Of a stretch of DNA of 20,203 nt, positions 8,287 to 17,196 are shown piece by piece; within the stretch, counting starts at the first letter, position 1; the number at the start of each line of letters is the position of its first letter. A program made the position numbers and the translations under genes. The stretch lies in UHGV virus genome UHGV-1356910; one strand, given 5' to 3'. Below the pieces are notes generated by a model. It had not been told where the DNA came from, searched no databases, and was given only the letters and a program-made list of their open reading frames with translations. This DNA is from a virus.

Positions 8287-8415
8287 CATATTCATATTTT
8301 TGTTATTCTTGTATGAAATCGTCTCATGTACACGGTCCTTTTTTCGCCGAAAACTGATATTACTTTAATCAAAAGTTGACATGCCAGATTCGAAGCAAAT
8401 TTATAAAATATCAAA

Positions 8416-8721
8416 TCAATATACATTTTGCACCTTCGATATAGTAATGGCCGTTACTGTAATATGAGTTACAAACAGCTTCATACCCAGAGCTACTGAT
8501 GTATCAACACGATTCAACAATACCCGATATTTATTCCATGCCTCCAGCAACGATCTTTCTTCCTCCGTTGCGATTTCCAGATCTACAGCATCCTGCAGTG
8601 GCGCAATATACTCACTGAATTCCTGGATGTAGAACTGTGTGGTGACGGTCTTCCAGCCATTCGGCTCCTGCTGTATCGAAGCATACCAGGCTATTTCAAT
8701 ATCGCTATGCTGCGGCAGCAT
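8416..8721 (-). pseudogene. Tail fibre assembly (Tfa) protein fragment: C-terminal half with an aberrant terminus
   Basis: Contains [37 protein letters not shown], then departs from the canonical ..TAPDIEWP.. ending. The N-terminal half of the family is missing and the methyltransferase gene lies where it would be. Confidence 0.6.
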
Positions 8722-8777
8722 TTAACCCCTTGTAATTCATCGCCATAATTGATTTAATTCATAAATAAAACTATAAC

Positions 8778-9446
8778 ATGGTGAAATTAATGAAAAAAAA
8801 CACAGATGATGGGGCTAAAATTTACACACCACTTACCCTAAAGCTTTATGACTGGTGGGTTTTGGGAGTATCAAATCGGCTTGCATGGGGATGTCCTACA
8901 AAGGAACACCTTCTTCCACACTTTCTGGAACATTTAGGTAACAACCATCTGGATATTGGTGTTGGAACTGGGTTTTACCTTACTCACGTACCTGAGAGTA
9001 GTCTGATATCTTTAATGGATTTGAACGAAGCTAGCCTGAACGCGGCATCTACAAGGGCAGGGGAATCAAAAATTAAACATAAAATTAGCCATGATGTTTT
9101 TGAACCTTATCCCGCGGCGTTACATGGTCAATTTGATTCCATTTCCATGTTTTACCTTCTTCACTGCCTGCCTGGAAATATATCTACAAAAAGCTGTGTA
9201 ATACGCAATGCGGCGCAGGCCTTAACTGACGATGGAACTCTATACGGAGCCACAATTCTTGGCGATGGAGTTGTGCACAATAGCTTCGGTCAAAAACTGA
9301 TGCGCATTTACAATCAGAAAGGCATCTTTTCAAACACAAAAGATTCCGAAGAAGGCTTAACACATATACTCTCAGAGCATTTCGAGAATGTTAAAACCAA
9401 GGTTCAAGGTACTGTAGTAATGTTTTCCGCTTCAGGGAAAAAATAG
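8778..9446 (+). CDS. Class I SAM-dependent methyltransferase (small-molecule/RNA type, not an obvious DNA MTase)
   Basis: Motif I LDIGVGTGFYL, about 220 aa. The more likely start is ATG 8790 after GGTGA. Its position between tfa remnants recalls the ybcY pseudogene context at the edge of E. coli K-12 DLP12 (memory, unverified). Confidence 0.8.
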   Translation: MVKLMKKNTDDGAKIYTPLTLKLYDWWVLGVSNRLAWGCPTKEHLLPHFLEHLGNNHLDIGVGTGFYLTHVPESSLISLMDLNEASLNAASTRAGESKIKHKISHDVFEPYPAALHGQFDSISMFYLLHCLPGNISTKSCVIRNAAQALTDDGTLYGATILGDGVVHNSFGQKLMRIYNQKGIFSNTKDSEEGLTHILSEHFENVKTKVQGTVVMFSASGKK

Positions 9447-9450
9447 CATC

Positions 9451-9488
9451 CAACCGCAGCACGTTCTTGCTTAAGACGTGCTGCGGCA
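9451..9488. repeat. Hairpin-containing direct repeat, copy 2 (CCAACCGCAGCACGTTCTTGCTTAAGACGTGCTGCGG)
   Basis: Perfect 11-bp stem. Lies immediately 3' of the tfa remnant on the - strand, where it could act as that gene's terminator. First 21 bp identical to copy 1. Confidence 0.6.
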
Positions 9489-9500
9489 TAATCCCAATGA

Positions 9501-9629
9501 TTACTCCCTGACAGGGTTCGTAGGCCACTCAATATCAGGTGCAGTTGATGTATCAACACGGTTCAGCAACACCCTGCATGCCTTCCATGCCGCCAGCAAT
9601 GATGTTTCCTCCTTCGTTGCATATACTGC
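9501..9629 (-). pseudogene. Tail fibre assembly (Tfa) 3' remnant with no start codon
   Basis: The - strand frame translates to ..[39 protein letters not shown], the canonical Tfa C-terminus. An in-frame stop lies 43 codons upstream and there is no in-frame start. Confidence 0.7.
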
Positions 9630-9638
9630 TCACCTTTT

Positions 9639-9932
9639 TCACCCACGATTAACCAACAGCCAGACCAGCAGACACGCCACCACCGGCACAGCAAAATCCA
9701 TCAGGCTTGCCACATCCCATGCACGTGGATCAAAACCGCCCCACCACGGCATGTTAATCCGCTTGCCATGCCCGAACATTTCAATCCAGCGATATTCTGC
9801 CTGGGTGTGTTCACGCGCAATGAAGAACGTACAACCGGCTATCGCCCCGTAAGCCCAGTTTCCGGTAAAAAGACCAGCCAGTACCTGCACCGCCACGGCA
9901 CAAAGCGCATGAAGTATCGACGTGATATCCAT
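9639..9932 (-). CDS. Small membrane protein (97 aa, two predicted transmembrane helices), function unknown
   Basis: ATG preceded by AGGA; hydrophobic segments at both ends of the product. Follows orf92 by 9 bp in the same orientation as stf. Confidence 0.6.
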   Translation of the reverse strand: MDITSILHALCAVAVQVLAGLFTGNWAYGAIAGCTFFIAREHTQAEYRWIEMFGHGKRINMPWWGGFDPRAWDVASLMDFAVPVVACLLVWLLVNRG

Positions 9933-9941
9933 CTGCTATCC

Positions 9942-10220
9942 TTAAAACCACTCCCTGAGCGGGCGCTCTGGTGTAACCACCCACTCACGGAACACGGAAT
10001 CATCAAATCCATCGTCAAGAAGACGGATATTAACAAAGTACCCTTCGTTTCGCGTGTATTCTGGTTCTCCGTCATCAGAAACATCTGTCTCCCTGAACGT
10101 AAAACCAATCTCATCAACCAGAACGGCATTCTGCAGCTCTTCGTCCTCTTCCCAGTTAAGTTTCCTGAGAAATGCCCTGAAATCTGCTTTATCACTGAAA
10201 CGCAACGTGAAATCTCTCAC
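9942..10220 (-). CDS. Small acidic protein (92 aa), function unknown; translationally coupled to stf
   Basis: GTG start overlaps the stf stop (GTGA) with a GGGGAGG Shine-Dalgarno 7 nt upstream. Product is strongly acidic (many D/E). Confidence 0.6.
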   Translation of the reverse strand: MRDFTLRFSDKADFRAFLRKLNWEEDEELQNAVLVDEIGFTFRETDVSDDGEPEYTRNEGYFVNIRLLDDGFDDSVFREWVVTPERPLREWF

Positions 10221-12280
10221 TCCACAACCTCCCCAAGCTGCGCATCTGTTAGCTCTTTATGCCAGAGACGAAAATTCCTCACATGCCCAAATAAATGGCG
10301 TAATCCTGCTGTAGTTTGTCCACCAATGCGAATGGTTGCTGTACTCCGGATATATTCCCATTTGGTTTTAGTTTCGCTGCTTAACTTACCGTTACTGACT
10401 ACACATGTGGACCGTTCGGACTTTACCCGCATACCAATAAGCATTTTTTTCAGCCCGGCATTTTCATTTATTCGTCGGTTTGAACCACCAATATCACAAT
10501 ACGGAAAACCGTCGTACCCACCTGATGAACCAAACCCCATTACGATCCCCGCATCTGCCTGATGCCGGTATGTGTCAAAAACACGTGGCGCTGCATTTGG
10601 CGTTTTATACCAGTTCTTATGTACCTCACAAAGAACCGTAAAAGGAAGATTATAAAGATTATTCTTAATCGGAACTGTAACCATATCGCTTGCCCGCGTT
10701 ACCGGTGCCGTCCCCGTAACAATAAAAGATGATGCGCCTGTACCAGCCTCAATCTGTGGAGTGGTTACATCGAGATAATCCCTTGATGCAACCATCTGCC
10801 CTGTATCCGGAGAATACTGGACAAAACCGCCAACCGTATTTTCTGTTGTATCTGCTTTTAATGTAGCCTCAAAAAATATCCAGCCAGTTGCATCATCCTT
10901 AACAGACCTTGCTGTAACACGGCTTGTCTGACCTGTCTTGCTAATTATGCGGGTGGTAAGGTTCAGGCTTGCTGCTCCTATTGATGTCCTTACCTCCCCA
11001 TCATAATGTTCAAATAAAATACGAACGGCGATATTATCAACTTCACTTTTTACCCGACAGGATATAGTTACATACTTTTCGTCCCCTGAAGTATCAACCC
11101 CTCCGGTACTCGAATACAGTCCGATAATGGTATGCGCTTTACTTGTACCAACAATCGAATCCTGTACGACAAACCGGCCATAATTAAACCCGAAACTATC
11201 TGTGCCTGTTTCTGTAACGTCCAGTGAAGTTGACTTATTCCACTTCGAAGGGTCTGTACTGTTCGGGAAGAAGTTCGTTCTTTGCCCCTCAATAAGCAGG
11301 CCATCACACTCAAATCGTGGCTCATTAATTTCCGCCGTTTTCAGTTCGCCAGATTTGTTGATATATGTTGCCGTTGATGCGCGACTGAAATTAACCTGTT
11401 TATCACTGGCAACCTGAACCACATTATCACCAATCTTCACTTTTTTATAACCCGGAGAATAGCCCGTAATCATATCCAGCGAATCATTAAAGGGTATCCA
11501 CACATCCGGCAGCGGCTGTAAAACATATCTGTACGGCTCTGCTGTCTGGTTTGCGTATTCTCTGGCAGCATCTTCACTTGCTTTTGCTGCCGTCTGGCTT
11601 GCTGCCGATGCTTTCGCCGAGTTCGCCGCCGCTGTTTCGCTCACCTTTGCGTTGGCTTCACTGTCTTTGGCATTCGTCTCACTGGTTTTCGCTGCCGTCT
11701 GGCTGGATTTTGCGTTTTTTTCGCTGGCCTTTGTGGCTGTCTCGCTATTTTTCGCGTTGGTTTCTGATTTTTTGGCTGCTGTCGCGGAGTTTGCCGATGC
11801 AGTCTGCGAGGCCGCTGCCGCCTGTGCGCTGTTAGCTGCATTCGTCTCTGATGTTTTCGCCGCATTCCTGGACGATGCCGCTGCTGTTTCTGATTTCTTT
11901 GCTGCCGCTGCGCTCTGAGAGGCGGCTTCAGCGTTGCGTGCCACCTCTTCCACCATCTTTTCAAAACGATACAGTGCCTCCGGACGAACATCATCTTCTG
12001 TTGCAGCGCCCAGAAAATCATTCAATGTCCCCGGCTTAGAATCCTCATACACGGTGATGGCCCCGGCATGTGAAGGCGGAAAACCTTCAACCAGCAGGAT
12101 AACGCTGTACTGGCCATACTCGACATCCATGCTGTAACGTCCGGCTTCATCCGGATTTTCTGAGGCCACCGTGTTCACCACAACCGTGGTGCTGTTACGT
12201 TTTGCTTTGAGCTGAATGGTGCAGTTCTGTATCGGTTTTCCTGCACCGTCTTTCAGCACGCCTGAAATCTGTACTGCCAT
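10217..12280 (-). CDS. stf: Side tail fibre protein (Stf-like) with an Ala-rich repeat shaft and a non-lambda C-terminal domain
   Basis: N-terminus MAVQISGVLKDGAGKPIQNCTIQLKA.. matches the lambda Stf N-terminal domain. The likely start is ATG 12280 after GGAG; the ORF-track start at 12286 is GTG. The C-terminus ends ..NFRLWHKELTDAQLGEVVE. Confidence 0.85.
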   Translation of the reverse strand: MAVQISGVLKDGAGKPIQNCTIQLKAKRNSTTVVVNTVASENPDEAGRYSMDVEYGQYSVILLVEGFPPSHAGAITVYEDSKPGTLNDFLGAATEDDVRPEALYRFEKMVEEVARNAEAASQSAAAAKKSETAAASSRNAAKTSETNAANSAQAAAASQTASANSATAAKKSETNAKNSETATKASEKNAKSSQTAAKTSETNAKDSEANAKVSETAAANSAKASAASQTAAKASEDAAREYANQTAEPYRYVLQPLPDVWIPFNDSLDMITGYSPGYKKVKIGDNVVQVASDKQVNFSRASTATYINKSGELKTAEINEPRFECDGLLIEGQRTNFFPNSTDPSKWNKSTSLDVTETGTDSFGFNYGRFVVQDSIVGTSKAHTIIGLYSSTGGVDTSGDEKYVTISCRVKSEVDNIAVRILFEHYDGEVRTSIGAASLNLTTRIISKTGQTSRVTARSVKDDATGWIFFEATLKADTTENTVGGFVQYSPDTGQMVASRDYLDVTTPQIEAGTGASSFIVTGTAPVTRASDMVTVPIKNNLYNLPFTVLCEVHKNWYKTPNAAPRVFDTYRHQADAGIVMGFGSSGGYDGFPYCDIGGSNRRINENAGLKKMLIGMRVKSERSTCVVSNGKLSSETKTKWEYIRSTATIRIGGQTTAGLRHLFGHVRNFRLWHKELTDAQLGEVVE
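11590..11935 (-). repeat. In-frame degenerate tandem repeats encoding the Ala/Ser/Thr/Asn-rich Stf shaft (..KTSETNA.. heptad-like units)
   Basis: Repetitive GC-rich codons generate several spurious antisense ORFs in this interval. Confidence 0.5.
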
Positions 12281-12290
12281 ATTCACTCCA

Positions 12291-12319
12291 CAAATAAAAA
12301 AGGCACCATTTCTGGCGCC
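12291..12319 (-). terminator. Rho-independent terminator between J and stf
   Basis: On the - strand: GGCGCCA, GAAA tetraloop, TGGTGCC (7-bp stem with one G-U pair) followed by TTTTTTATTT. Confidence 0.55.
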
Positions 12320-12338
12320 CGTATCTGGGTTATAAAAT

Positions 12339-15300
12339 TCAACTGATACTGATACCGGCTGTAGATTTCTTCATCACAACAACAAGAAGGTCGCTGATAC
12401 TGGTCGTTGGCGTCCAGTTATTAGCACCATATGAAGAAACATTGAAAGTCAGGGTGACATGGCCGTGTCCGGCAGGCATATCAATGACTGATGAAAATAC
12501 CCTGCTGACATCCGTCGCGGGTTGCTGAAAGATTTCCTGTCCGTTCTTCAGTACCTGCAGCTTACAGGTTGAATACCAGTATGACTGTTGGTTGTTGCTG
12601 TTGAAGTTTTCATGCTTACCCCCACGAAACAGAACGGGGGGGACTACTATCTGACGGTCAAAAGCCTGGTCATCGTACACAGTGACCGTTATTGTACCGC
12701 TGGCATAACTGCCATTTCTCGGAAAGGCTTTTCCCACCGTTTTGACAATATCACCTTCAATCTGGTTAGCTGACAGTTTTCCCAGAATCCGACAGTTCTG
12801 ATTAATCGTGACGTTGTTGAGCGTCCCGGAGTTCGCGTTCACGTTACCGCTGATATCCGCATTTTTCGCAGAAAGTCGACCATCAGGTGTCAGTGAAAAC
12901 GTTGGGGGATTGCCACCGCTGGTAATGGTGGGAGCCGTCAGATATTTCAGGAACACTTCGTTCATGAATATCTGATCGCCCTGCCCAACAAACATCGGCT
13001 TTGTGTTGCCATTCGCAGGATTAATCATCGCAATCCTGTCCGCCGCCAGCAGCACCTGACTCTGCATACCGTCAGGAGTATTCTCAACACCGGCACCAAT
13101 ACCCGCGATATAAAGGCGTCCGTCCTGCATCTGCTGCAGCTTCACAGCCCACATGCTGTTCAGGTTATTATTTGTATCAACCTGAACCTTCTGTATCTGC
13201 TGGATCGCTGCACTCTGGTCTTCCAGTTTCTTATTGACGGTCTGCGTGATTTCATTGCTGACACCCGTAATGGACGTCCTGATTTCAGCCAGGTCAGGCG
13301 CAAGCTGACCGTTATCAATCTGCGTCCACAACTCCTGAGCCAGATGGGTTTTCCCTATCTCTCCTTTGAAAAAATTCAGATAGCCGGATGCATCATCACT
13401 CGGCTGGCCAACAGCCTCCACAAATGCCGATTTGCCAACGGTGTTCACACTGCGGATGTAAAAATAATAATCATGGCCCGGTTTGATATTGATACTGGCG
13501 GCTATCCAGTACAGCGCCGTACCAAGATAGCGTGCTGTGGTTTCAACCTGCCTGATATCCGCAATCCGCTTTCCCGAGAACCAGAACTCAAACTGTACCG
13601 TCGGATCATAAACCGCAAGATGCGGCGTGGCGGTTATCTGAAAATACCCCGGTGTCAGCTCAATCTGCGACGGCGCTGCCGGTGCGGCAATCCGGAACGA
13701 TACCGATGCCGGATCGCCCTGCTGCCCCCACGCATTTACCGCCCGGACTGTCAGCCTGTAGTTCCCCAGCGCCAGTTGCCTGAAGCGGTATGTGGTTTCC
13801 GTCGTCCGGGCCATGCTGACCAGCCGCTCACTGCCGTCGTCCGCTGCCACGGTAAGGCGAAGCAGGAAGCTCACGCCCTTCACCACCTTCGGCGTGTCCC
13901 AGCGCGCCAGCACCTGATATTCCCCGCTGTCTGCAGTGACTTCGGCGGTCAGGTGCTGCACCGCTGGCGGCGTGACACCATTCACCGTGCCGCTCTGGTC
14001 GCCGTCAAAGTGCGCCCCGTTATCCACGATGGCTTCTTTTTCCGGTACATGCTGCACGGCGGTGATGGCATACGTACCGTCATCGTTCTCCCGGATACTC
14101 ACACAGCGGAACAGGCGCTGGCGCAGCGTCGGCAGCTTCAGCCCCCACACGCTGTATTCGGCAACGCCGTCAGGAACACGGCTCACTTTCACCTTCACGC
14201 CGTCGGTGACGGACTGGACCTCCACGCTGACCGGATTGCCATTTCCGTCAACCAGGCTTATCAGCGTGGTGCCGGAGGATGGCAGCATGATTTCACGGTC
14301 GAGCGTCAGTGTCCGCGCCTGGCTGTTCACCGCCAGCACGCGCCCGCCGGTGCTGATACCCGCATAGTCATCATCGCAGATTTCAATGACATCGCCCGGT
14401 ACATGGCGAAGCCCTTCTGCGCCCACGCTGAAGTCCACGGTCTGCGTTTCCAGCAGCTCCGTTTTAATCAGCCACAGCCCGGCGCGGTGTGCCTGCCCCC
14501 GACTGGTACAGCCAAAGGCATCCATCTTCGTGACGTTACGACCGTAACGGGCAATGGCCTGCGTGTCCTCCACAAGCTCTGTCGCCGTCTCCCAGCCGTT
14601 ATCCGGGTCAATCCAGTTCACCTCAACGGCATTATGGCGGTCCTTCAGGGCGCTGAAGCTGTAGCGGAACGGCGCGCCATCATCCGGCATCACCACATTA
14701 CTGCGGTTATAGGTCCACACCTTATCCGACGGTCGGTCCTGCACGAATGTCAGCGTCTGCCCGTTCCATACCGGCATACAGCGCATCGCCGAGCAAAAAT
14801 CACTGAGCACATCCCACGCCTTGCGCTGTGTGGTCAGGTACGCATTACAGGTGATGCGCGGCTCCGTGCCGCCAAAACCGTCCGGCACCGACTGGTCGCA
14901 ATTCTGGCCGATGACATACAGCGCCCATTTATCCACATCTGCCGCACCAAGACGTTTACCCATGCCGTAGCGCGGGTGGGTCAGCATATCCCACAGACAC
15001 CAGGCCATGTTGTTGCTGTATGCCGGTTTAAACGTCCCGTCCCAGATACCGATGTATTGCCGCGTCTGCGGGTTATAGTTCGACGGCACCTGCAGAATGC
15101 GCCCGCGAAGATGATAATTACGGCTCACCTGCTGGCTGCCGAACTGTTCCGAGTCCACCTGCACGCCGACCAGTGCCGTGTTCGGGTAGCACTGTTTCAC
15201 ATCGATGATTTCGGTGTATGACGACCAGAGCGTTTTGTTCTGCAGCTGGTCTGTGGTGCTGTCCGGTGTCATCCTGCGCATCCGGATATTGAACGGGCGC

Positions 15301-15821
15301 GGAGGCAGGTTATCCACCACCACCGAGGCCAGATACTGCGAGGTGGTTTTGCCCTTAATGGTGATGTCTTTTTCCGTCACCCAGCCACCGTTACGCTGTA
15401 TCTGAACCAGCAGGCGGACTTCCGATGGATTACGGTCCCCCTTTGAAGTGGTTTCCACCAGTGCCTGCACACCGAAGGTAAAGCGCAGACGGTCGATGTT
15501 TGCAGACGTAATGGTGTGGGTGATCGGCGTGTCATATTTCACTTCCGTACCCAGCACCGTCTCGGAACCGGAGGATTCAAATCCCTCCGGCGGTGTCTGC
15601 TCCTGCTCACCTGCCCGGAACACCACCGTGACGCCGGAGATGTTGGTATTTCCCTCACTGTCCAGCACCGGTGTACTGTTCAGCAGCACGCTTTTTAATC
15701 CATCCACCGGACCTTCTATCGGCCCTTCGCTGATGGCATCGATCACACTCAGCAACTGCGTGGACTTCAGGTTGTCCTTCGCTTCGCGCGGGGTATGCCC
15801 CTTACTGCTGCCTTTACCCAT
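12339..15821 (-). CDS. J: Tail tip / host specificity protein J (central tail fibre)
   Basis: 1160 aa; the N-terminal roughly two-thirds is near-identical to lambda gpJ as recalled, and the C-terminal roughly third diverges. Confidence 0.95.
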
Positions 15822-16464
15822 TCCTCACGCTCCATAAACGACAAAACCGCCCGTAGGCGGTTTCACATAAAACATTTTGCATCAGCGACTGGTCTGTGGT
15901 GCTGTCCGGTGTCATCCTGCGCATCCGGATATTGAACGGGCGCGGAGGCAGGTTATCCACCACCACCGAGGCCAGATACTGCGAGGTGGTTTTGCCCTTA
16001 ATGGTGATGTCTTTTTCCGTCACCCAGCCACCGTTACGCTGTATCTGAACCAGCAGGCGGACTTCCGATGGATTACGGTCCCCCTTTGAAGTGGTTTCCA
16101 CCAGTGCCTGCACACCGAAGGTAAAGCGCAGACGGTCGATGTTTGCAGACGTAATGGTGTGGGTGATCGGCGTGTCATATTTCACTTCCGTACCCAGCAC
16201 CGTCTCGGAACCGGAGGATTCAAATCCCTCCGGCGGTGTCTGCTCCTGCTCACCTGCCCGGAACACCACCGTGACGCCGGAGATGTTGGTATTTCCCTCA
16301 CTGTCCAGCACCGGTGTACTGTTCAGCAGCACGCTTTTTAATCCATCCACCGGACCTTCTATCGGCCCTTCGCTGATGGCATCGATCACACTCAGCAACT
16401 GCGTGGACTTCAGGTTGTCCTTCGCTTCGCGCGGGGTATGCCCCTTACTGCTGCCTTTACCCAT
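15814..16464 (-). pseudogene. Truncated duplicate of the J 5' region (J N-terminal fragment)
   Basis: The first ~190 residues are identical to the J N-terminus. The frame then runs across the duplication junction into the I-J spacer and stops at a TAA overlapping the J ATG. Confidence 0.7.
15843..15863 (-). other. GC hairpin in the I-J spacer (CCGCC-N4-GGCGG flanked by A/T runs), duplicated at 16486-16506
   Basis: On the - strand the hairpin is followed by TTTTGTCGTTTAT. Possible attenuator or processing site just upstream of the J Shine-Dalgarno. Confidence 0.4.
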
Positions 16465-16524
16465 TCCTCACGCTCCATAAACGACAAAACCGCCCGTAGG
16501 CGGTTTCACATAAAACATTTTGCA

Positions 16525-17196
16525 TCAGCGACCAATCACCACAACCTGACCACCGTCCCCTTCGTCTGCCGTGCTGATCTCCTGAGAAACCACGCGTGAC
16601 CCCACGCGCATTTCACCGTACAGAACAGGCAAAACATTGCCCTGGGCAACCATGTTATCCAGTGAAGAGAAATACGTGTTCTGCTTACCGTTATCCGTGC
16701 TGGTCGCTGTGGGCGTCCTGGCTTTCGGTACCAGCATCTGCGCCACACCACCGAGCACCATACTGGCACCGAGAGAAAACAGGATGCCGGTCATACCACC
16801 GGCCCCAATGGCTGCCCCCCATGCTGCAAGGGTGGCTCCGGCAGTAAAGAATGATCCGGCAATGGCGGCAGCTCCCAGGACAATCTGGAATACACCACCT
16901 GACTTGGCCCCGGCGACTCTGGGAACAATATGAATCACAGCGCCATCAGGCAGAGTCTCATGTAACTGCGCCGTTAATCCGGACGTGCTGACATCCCGCC
17001 CGGCAATCCGTACCTGATACCAGCCGTCGCTCAGTTTCTGACGAAACGCCGGGAGCTGTGTGGCCAGTGCGCGGATGGCTTCAGCCCCCGTTTTCACACG
17101 AAGATCGATGCGGCGGCCAAATCGTTGTAAATCCCCGTAAAGGCAGATGCGTGCCATGCCCGGTGACGCCAGAGGGAGTGTGTGCGTCGCTGCCAT
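16525..17196 (-). CDS. I: Tail tip assembly protein I
   Basis: 223 aa starting MAATHTLPLASPGMARICLYGDLQRFGRRIDL, near-identical to lambda gpI as recalled. Overlaps the 3' end of K as in lambda. Confidence 0.92.
   Translation of the reverse strand: MAATHTLPLASPGMARICLYGDLQRFGRRIDLRVKTGAEAIRALATQLPAFRQKLSDGWYQVRIAGRDVSTSGLTAQLHETLPDGAVIHIVPRVAGAKSGGVFQIVLGAAAIAGSFFTAGATLAAWGAAIGAGGMTGILFSLGASMVLGGVAQMLVPKARTPTATSTDNGKQNTYFSSLDNMVAQGNVLPVLYGEMRVGSRVVSQEISTADEGDGGQVVVIGR

Follow-up and report, generated by a model that had tools for sequence, protein, structure and literature searches.

The window, a stretch of 20,203 nt from the virus genome UHGV-1356910, contained a perfect head-to-tail repeat of a 643-nt unit at the junction of the tail genes I and J, which places a truncated copy of J (J') ahead of the full-length gene. 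On the records compared, the repeat is private to this sequence, and the second copy has an even chance of being an untrimmed-overlap or joining artefact of sequence construction. That this phage lineage underwent a genuine tandem duplication very recently was considered a serious possibility, though less than an even bet. Whatever its origin, the repeat has no selected function.

The repeat was delimited by base-by-base comparison at an offset of 643, in which positions 15246-15888 and 15889-16531 aligned with 0 mismatches. The run of matches was unbroken over 644 positions (15246-15889 against 15889-16532), corresponding to the 643-nt unit and one shared base; the span 15246-16531 is exactly 2 x 643 nt, and a repeat search of the window returned the same spacing of 643. 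The unit length and perfect identity claimed in the first-pass annotation were borne out. A perfect repeat of 643 nt cannot arise by chance. Tandem Repeats Finder reported nothing on the window because its longest period, 500, is shorter than the unit, and its blank result is hence no evidence against the repeat. In gene orientation, the unit consists of 7 nt of I (the last base of a Gly codon, CGC and TGA), a 60-nt spacer and 576 nt of J (codons 1-192). I, J' and J all lie on the minus strand, a point that qualifies the earlier description. Coordinates are given in Table 1.

Table 1. Features of the I-J region of the window, in order of position; a slash marks the join in the junction sequence.
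Feature	Position	Strand	Basis or remark
J, intact tip attachment (central tail fibre) gene, 1160 aa	12339..15821	-	six gpJ Pfam domains
Copy 2 of 643-nt unit	15246..15888	-	base-by-base comparison
Copy 2, first 576 nt of intact J	15246-15821	-	
J', 216-aa ORF, J residues 1-192 plus 24 unrelated residues	15814..16464	-	ORF list, comparison with J
J' stop codon TAA	15814-15816	-	overlaps J codons 2-3, 2 nt past J ATG (15819-15821)
Copy 2, repeated I tail and spacer	15822-15888	-	
J Shine-Dalgarno GGAG	15830-15833	-	
Spacer hairpin AAACCGCC-TACG-GGCGGTTT then TGTCGTTT, copy adjoining J	15844..15863	-	computed fold
Novel junction, J codon 192 joined to 3' end of I	15888..15889	-	gene strand ...ACCACAGACCAG/TCGCTGATGCAAAATG...
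Copy 1 of 643-nt unit (first in gene orientation)	15889..16531	-	every base identical to 15246-15888
Copy 1, J codons 1-192	15889-16464	-	
Copy 1, I-J spacer, 60 nt	16465-16524	-	
Duplicate Shine-Dalgarno	16473-16476	-	
Duplicate spacer hairpin, upstream of J'	16487..16506	-	repeat identity
Copy 1, I 3' end, last 7 nt including TGA	16525-16531	-	
I, tail tip assembly gene, intact	16525..17196	-	Pfam Lambda_tail_I; ORF list; stop codon within copy 1

The genes on either side of the repeat form a lambda-type tail tip block, in which ORFs and Pfam matches placed M, L, K, I and J in this order on a single strand, I immediately preceding J. The block is collinear with those of lambda, 434 and EC9682. 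Intact J matched six of six domains above the Pfam cut-offs (FNIII-A, the Phage-tail_3 hub, two Ig_J, Phage_Tail_Tip and the C-terminal receptor-binding Ig domain), and the exact J protein was found on 15 public contigs. Antisense ORFs in the unit (15448-15837 and 15877-16089) and nearby (13344-15221) had no Pfam match. The order M-L-K-I-J is shared with lambda (J02459; I 14773-15444, J 15505-18903), 434, HK629/630, Lambda_4C10 and the EC9682 prophage, as is the 60-nt spacer that contains the hairpin and GGAG; nucleotide identity is 96-100%, and these relatives carry the spacer and the 5' end of J once, whereas the window carries them twice. In the phage 434 record (OL657226) the 20 nt of the hairpin are annotated as 'terminator' and the GGAG as RBS. 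A simple promoter and terminator scan of the spacer called nothing, the hairpin included, and an Rfam search of the window gave no match. The second copy of the J ribosome-binding region that the first-pass annotation had anticipated is present as the duplicate Shine-Dalgarno.

Copy number was compared across related records. One copy was present in the best 30 E. coli records, including five at 100% identity, and a junction search of complete E. coli genomes gave six 100%-identical matches, each with one copy. Phages and plasmids among the matches listed had one copy each, and the novel junction was not found as one piece in the E. coli, phage or plasmid records among those matches. Four of the 15 contigs carrying the exact J protein were inspected, all single-copy at this place. 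The EC9682 prophage matched the window at 100.000% identity over 13,162 bp up to the junction with one copy, and single copies were found in both of the two prophages identical to the window over that distance. The novel junction was absent from IMG/VR, GTDB representative genomes and JGI metagenomes, and the exact J' protein was absent among 15 billion proteins. A conserved or programmed arrangement should be present in related phages or prophages, all of which had one copy where inspected. That the repeat reflects either a very recent event or an assembly artefact, as first proposed, is upheld by these comparisons as an either/or statement.

Several other candidates were considered and set aside. 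Phage PhiR29_2 has two annotated J genes through a frameshift split and carries no duplication. Phage 'plasmids' in PLSDB with two I-J places were considered as examples of overlap artefacts. Inspection of one of them, NZ_CP126957.1, showed an N15-like phage-plasmid of the protelomerase type whose duplication is mirrored and inverted, a different error class. Mismatch density against lambda, 434, 4C10 and phiSTEC1575 was equal inside and outside the unit, which on this comparison is not an unusually conserved block of the kind that could act as an assembly repeat node. A phage direct terminal repeat and a programmed arrangement were both rejected on the grounds that the repeat lies within the late tail operon between I and J and that relatives are single-copy; the cos ends of lambda lie upstream of Nu1.

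At the novel junction, which can also be written ...GACCAG/TCGCTGATG..., the parental sites have one base in common, a G that is also found at 16532 and 15246. The first-pass annotation had reported this as a 1-bp junction microhomology, and the shared base was confirmed; as a sign of mechanism it says nothing about slippage, because at least one matching flanking base is expected at an arbitrary join with P = 1-(3/4)^2 = 0.44, that is, 44% of the time. Homology at the junction is therefore at chance level and is not evidence for slippage. A GCTG near both parental sites is out of register and was unused in the join. In E. coli, the amplification junctions sequenced from 31 of 31 isolates showed 4-15 bp of identity (Slack et al. 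2006, PMC1428787), and five experimentally verified duplication junctions in Salmonella had 11-27 bp of microhomology, with a deduced cut-off of at least 11 bp, shorter junctions being held indistinguishable from chimeras (Sun et al. 2012, PMC3411829). Microhomology-mediated (template-switch) duplication should leave head-to-tail copies with a single novel junction, as seen here, and several bases of homology at the breakpoints (4-15 bp, PMC1428787; at least 11 bp, PMC3411829), where the window has one. The short-junction duplications of E. coli and Salmonella are likewise head-to-tail, with a novel junction between unrelated sites and copies that are initially identical and unstable via homologous recombination; their units are mostly kilobases long with junctions of 4-15 or at least 11 bp, in contrast to the 643 nt and 1 bp of the window.

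If the second copy arose during sequence construction, a 643-nt stretch at the ends of two pieces would have been concatenated instead of merged, the pieces being both ends of a circularly assembled and later rotated phage contig or, alternatively, two contigs or two reads that overlapped and were joined at their ends. We infer that such a join would have been made in silico, and the true phage would then have the ordinary lambda layout of I, 60-nt spacer and J. The features expected of such an artefact, namely perfect identity, an arbitrary junction and no support in the independent sequences searched, were all found. The 0 differences in 643 nt and the 1-base junction are what a blind join would give (P = 0.44), and documented E. 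coli and Salmonella junctions have at least 4 bp against the 1 bp here. The repeat is single-copy in all inspected relatives, its junction and J' are missing from the three contig collections and the protein set searched, and the unit is not specially conserved, giving no hint of a selected module. Gene order in the window is vegetative (int, attP, b-region, J), which indicates an assembly of phage DNA in excised or virion form rather than of an integrated prophage. Duplicated start-end overlap has been documented in assemblies for small circular replicons (Wick & Holt benchmark, PMC6966772), and such overlaps resemble the window in being perfect direct repeats with arbitrary boundaries and no counterpart in relatives. 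They sit at contig ends, whereas the copies here are adjacent and lie in the interior of the window, with 3.7 kb to one end and 15 kb to the other, so that an overlap artefact would further require that the record was rotated or that pieces were joined by hand. Overlaps left by long-read assemblers are also usually tens or thousands of bases rather than about 640 (PMC6966772), De Bruijn assemblers are unable to create a junction k-mer absent from the reads, and the rest of the window appears to be a careful assembly, with no indels against relatives over 17 kb. We put the joining artefact at an even chance.

The position of the repeat in the interior of an otherwise clean assembly is in favor of a real duplication, neutral or slightly harmful, which we regard as quite plausible while holding it below even chances. 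A single illegitimate join, essentially independent of homology, would have linked J codon 192 to the I 3' end in sister or concatemeric molecules. The phage would remain viable because any tandem duplication leaves one intact copy of each gene, and genome size, with prophage ends taken from EC9682, would rise from about 46.8 kb to just about 47.4 kb, within the lambda packaging range. The copies do not differ from each other, and the window does not differ from the single-copy EC9682 over 13 kb; both observations would fit an origin after the separation from EC9682. Classical examples of tandem duplication are known from lambda and from enterobacterial chromosomes. Those described for lambda in the 1970s by Bellett, Busse and Baldwin and by Emmons and co-workers reportedly gave viable genomes with internal head-to-tail repeats that segregated by recombination; they are said to have been kilobases long and selected by genome-length effects, a selection that is not evident for the window. 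On induction, the J ribosome-binding site in copy 1 would direct translation of J', I and J being intact; ribosomes on J' would stop 2 nt past the J ATG, and J would be translated by reinitiation or with the use of its own Shine-Dalgarno. The duplication would be lost quickly through RecA or Red recombination of its 643-nt copies. Against a real duplication stand the 1 bp of junction homology, compared with at least 4 bp in documented and at least 11 bp in verified cases, the lack of a second independent record with the junction in the searched collections, and the lack of an apparent selective reason. Heteroplasmy during lytic growth, with a duplication carried by a fraction of the sequenced population and promoted to the consensus by the assembler, would reconcile a junction present in the reads with its absence from all relatives, and phage replication with Red/RecA and concatemers yields rearranged molecules; consensus callers normally take the majority, and we consider this improbable.

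The truncated product was examined by comparison with J. The first-pass annotation had described a 216-aa ORF sharing about 190 residues with the J N-terminus and ending at a TAA that overlaps the true J start, and both statements hold, with identity over exactly 192 residues. The 24-residue tail is read from the end of I and the spacer, and J' starts at an ATG with a full Shine-Dalgarno. Residues 1-192 aligned with lambda gpJ (8iyk, 9e7m; E about 1e-119) at about 97% identity. Pfam matched only FNIII-A_GpJ, up to profile position 110 of 126, and found none of the gpJ hub, Ig or receptor-binding domains in J', which has no complete domain. FNIII-A, which covers residues 86-207 by Pfam here and residues 72-215 in lambda, is an insert within hub domain II (HDII); J' ends within it, 15-23 residues short of its end, and lacks most of HDII. 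Because it is cut inside FNIII-A and is without most of the hub, J' is judged unlikely to be functional. The proposal that it could interfere with tail-tip assembly is speculation, and from its domain content J' would more likely be an unstable fragment than a competitor.

We considered it highly improbable that the arrangement is selected and functional, whether through J' acting as a decoy or as a dominant-negative piece of the tail tip, for instance against lambdoid phages resident in the same host, or through adjustment of J expression by the doubled hairpin and ribosome-binding site. Binding of gpI by an N-terminal fragment is conceivable, and J' has the full Shine-Dalgarno and ATG. None of the relatives inspected shares the arrangement, not even the prophages whose 13 kb on the J side of the junction match the window perfectly; J' stops before the end of FNIII-A, without the rest of HDII and with a nonsense tail; and perfect identity of the copies leaves no time for selection. 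There is similarly only the slightest chance that the duplication is real and that induction yields a J' (HDII strands 1-4 and most of FNIII-A) that attaches to gpI or gpL and inhibits tail-tip assembly as a dominant negative; if so, it would cripple this phage or co-resident lambdoid phages with nearly identical I and J N-termini.

The finding has little bearing on biology, and its practical value is in quality control. The I-J region of the record probably needs a check against the reads, and annotation pipelines would otherwise list a 216-aa fragment of 'host specificity protein J' that is spurious. A further lesson of the junction is that a 1-bp 'microhomology' is no evidence of mechanism. 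Whether it is an artefact or a young accidental duplication, the repeat is biologically ordinary; if real, it would add to the private, unstable tandem duplications of lambdoid phages and would leave I and J intact.

Shifted by 643 nt and compared with its own sequence, the window showed an unbroken run of identities (15246-15889 against 15889-16532), with matching at random level on either side. The run comprises two 643-nt units in tandem with 0 mismatches, plus one base common to both parental breakpoints; a repeat search of the window likewise returned a spacing of 643 nt. Tandem Repeats Finder gave no report for the unit because the longest period it handles is 500. The span of 15246-16531 assigned in the first-pass annotation is exactly 2 x 643, and the perfect identity and the 1-bp sharing at the junction described there were both reproduced. 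Read in gene orientation, the unit begins with the last base (T) of the third-from-last I codon, followed by CGC TGA, and ends exactly after J codon 192, enclosing the whole 60-nt I-J spacer between the I tail and the J start. A nearby GCTG is present in both parental sites, out of register and unused at the junction. The spacer carries the hairpin AAACCGCC-TACG-GGCGGTTT, followed by TGTCGTTT; in the phage 434 record the 20 nt of this hairpin are labelled "terminator" and GGAG is labelled as the J ribosome-binding site. The genes concerned all lie on the minus strand, and neither I nor J is disrupted, as must hold after any tandem duplication. A 625-aa ORF on the plus strand (13344-15221), antisense to J and without a Pfam match, can almost certainly be dismissed as a spurious shadow ORF.

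Coordinates of genes and sites in the window
Feature	Position	Strand	Details
int	1396-2709	+	attP region (window 1-3300)
att core	about 2728-2738		11-nt overlap joining two prophage ends
Moron cluster	3001-9446		DinI-like, GNAT acetyltransferase, HTH-cupin regulator, OmpT omptin protease, alpha/beta hydrolase, SAM methyltransferase
J (1160 aa)	12339-15821 (ATG 15819-15821)	-	ORF; Pfam gpJ domain series complete
J' (216 aa)	15814-16464	-	ORF; truncated J copy
I	16525-17196	-	ORF; Pfam Lambda_tail_I
K	17094-17837	-	ORF; Pfam JAB and NlpC/P60
L	17843-18541	-	ORF
M	18541-18870	-	ORF
H	from 18867 towards right end of window, cut off there	-	ORF

Because the unit ends after J codon 192, its upstream copy encodes J', which consists of J residues 1-192 extended by 24 residues encoded by the second copy's I tail and spacer. 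The first-pass annotation had proposed a 216-aa ORF sharing about 190 residues with J and ending at a TAA that overlaps the J start; 192 residues are shared, and the TAA (15814-15816) lies 2 nt past the ATG of intact J. Residues 1-192 of J' aligned to lambda gpJ (PDB 8iyk, 9e7m) with E about 1e-119. The Pfam domain FNIII-A_GpJ covers residues 86-207 of full J and ends at 192 in J', at profile position 110 of 126; in the lambda tail structure the Ig-like/FNIII-A insert forms residues 72-215 inside hub domain II (HDII) (PMC10721106). J' holds just the first HDII strands, FNIII-A without its last 15-23 residues and a nonsense tail, and would be unable to build the ring; such a fragment would more likely misfold than compete effectively.

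Matches to the 2-kb region around the repeat were found in 4,508 of 5,426 complete E. coli genomes. In the best 30 of these 4,508 records, which include five with 100.0% identity, the alignment fell into two pieces and covered 1,358 bp of the subject, which is 2,001 minus 643 and therefore corresponds to one copy in each. A 120-nt query centred on the junction (15888/15889) gave no one-piece alignment among the records listed, including all six at 100% identity, and the junction was not in one piece in the phage or the plasmid records listed. The closest relative, the prophage of E. coli strain EC9682 (NZ_CP095271), matches the window at 100.000% identity along the 13,162 bp between the att site and the junction and resumes past the latter at the position matching the end of copy 1. 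The exact 1160-aa J was found in 15 public contigs; in the four contexts displayed, I was followed by 60 nt and then directly by J, the remaining 11 being grouped as similar to these. The exact J' protein was not found in ~15 billion proteins, nor were junction 24-29-mers in IMG/VR, one genome per GTDB species or JGI metagenomes. Comparison with closely related prophages, a check suggested at first pass, thus returned one copy in each record inspected, EC9682 included. Since the inspected relatives are single-copy and the junction and J' are absent from the collections, the repeat is private to this sequence, and is younger than the split from a relative without any substitution across 13 kb.

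The sole differences between EC9682 and the window are position 18242 and a patch in the tape measure gene H (minus strand, 19221-19558; 18 substitutions within 340 nt), in contrast to the identity on the other side of the repeat. The patch looks like recombination from another lambdoid phage, and together with the rest of the window it was not found in complete E. coli genomes. Three further records were noted. The J annotation of PV340557.1 (phage PhiR29_2, 9956-13352) consists of two CDSs of 1428 and 1992 nt that overlap; a duplication was rejected there in favour of a frameshift split of J. NZ_CP082339.1, a Salmonella enterica "plasmid" of 48,502 bp in PLSDB, is exactly as long as the phage lambda genome and, with the 2-kb I-J query, equals lambda J02459 in identity and score; the deposit of lambda control DNA under the label of a plasmid is the likely explanation. 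NZ_CP126957.1, entered in PLSDB as a 68,426-bp "circular plasmid", belongs to the N15-like protelomerase phage-plasmids and has lambda-like tail genes. Its genes run in mirrored order about two points (telN/telN and sopA/sopA), as is typical of reads through hairpin telomeres; the record is therefore probably a mis-assembled linear replicon.

In the window, cargo ("moron") genes form a cluster that separates attP from the tail fibre genes. The methyltransferase gene is flanked by direct repeats of 75 nt (81% identity, 8497-8571 and 9546-9620), and the EC9682 annotation places two truncated tail fibre assembly (tfa) genes at these positions; the methyltransferase therefore looks like an insertion within or between tfa remnants. 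Another direct repeat, of 35 nt (91% identity, 3311-3345 and 9447-9481, 6.1 kb apart), has one copy just past DinI and the other just past the methyltransferase gene, and may be a shared terminator or module boundary. In the minus-strand side tail fibre gene, a 689-aa "prophage tail fibre N-terminal", a 41-nt motif recurs in three degenerate copies (61-76% identity, 11559-11746), which indicates that the fibre shaft is internally repetitive.

At 48-2738 the window matches, with 100% identity, the integrase end of the EC9682 prophage, which lies in yecE, between yecD and yecN; 2728-20203 corresponds to the opposite end of that prophage. An 11-nt overlap thus joins the integrase end of the yecE prophage (EC9682, DETEC-S589) to its DinI/b-region end as an attP joint, in the lambda vegetative order of xis, int, attP, b-region morons, side tail fibre and J. 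The window therefore comes from a phage genome that was excised, in virion form or assembled as a circle, or from a tandem lysogen. The attP joint was not found in one piece in complete E. coli genomes, nor in any contig collection searched.

The first-pass annotation had posed a very recent event or an assembly artefact as the alternatives, and the 0 mismatches and single-copy relatives support that choice. Both predict perfect identity and absence from relatives, and the junction discriminates between them weakly. An overlap or joining artefact of assembly is given about an even chance: one shared base is the outcome of a blind join (P = 0.44 for at least 1), and small circular replicons are a class with documented duplicated start-end overlap (PMC6966772). 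However, the repeat is internal, so that a rotation or manual join has to be assumed; the overlaps on record usually measure tens or thousands of bases, against about 640 here; k-mer assemblers cannot invent the junction; and the remaining window is clean, with 0 indels against relatives over 17 kb. The unit was also considered as a specially conserved block acting as an assembly repeat node and rejected, as mismatch counts were similar inside and outside: 22-26 in the unit against lambda, 434 and phiSTEC1575, with 17-20 and 25-27 in the adjoining 644 nt on either side, and 4 against the closer 4C10, with 8 and 8 in the flanks.

A real, recent illegitimate duplication is a serious prospect, rated somewhat short of even, and its 1 bp of sharing stands against longer identities at documented junctions: 4-15 bp in 31 of 31 E. 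coli amplification isolates sequenced in one study (PMC1428787), and 11-27 bp at five experimentally verifiable Salmonella duplication junctions, in a study that treated short-overlap junctions as indistinguishable from library chimeras (PMC3411829). Elevation of a minority variant to the consensus is improbable, and an arrangement with a selected function, which is not conserved in relatives, is more improbable still.

No new kind of element is defined, the arrangement being already known in kind. Of its closest known counterparts, the ordinary lambda I-J junction has the same genes, in one copy where there are two here; enterobacterial short-junction tandem duplications share the topology but have longer junction homology; and untrimmed overlaps in circular assemblies leave this sequence signature too, though usually at the ends of contigs. 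Conservation in relatives, the one test able to lend the arrangement interest, failed.

If real, the duplication would be neutral in the lysogen, where the late operon is silent, and homologous recombination between the 643-nt copies would delete it at an appreciable rate, which fits the absence of sightings elsewhere. On induction, Q-antiterminated transcription would pass through both hairpins, the upstream J ribosome-binding site would drive translation of J', and the ribosomes translating it would open up the second hairpin and stop 2 nt past the J ATG. J would still be produced, through its own GGAG or by reinitiation, and the genome, enlarged from about 46.8 to 47.4 kb, would be packageable.
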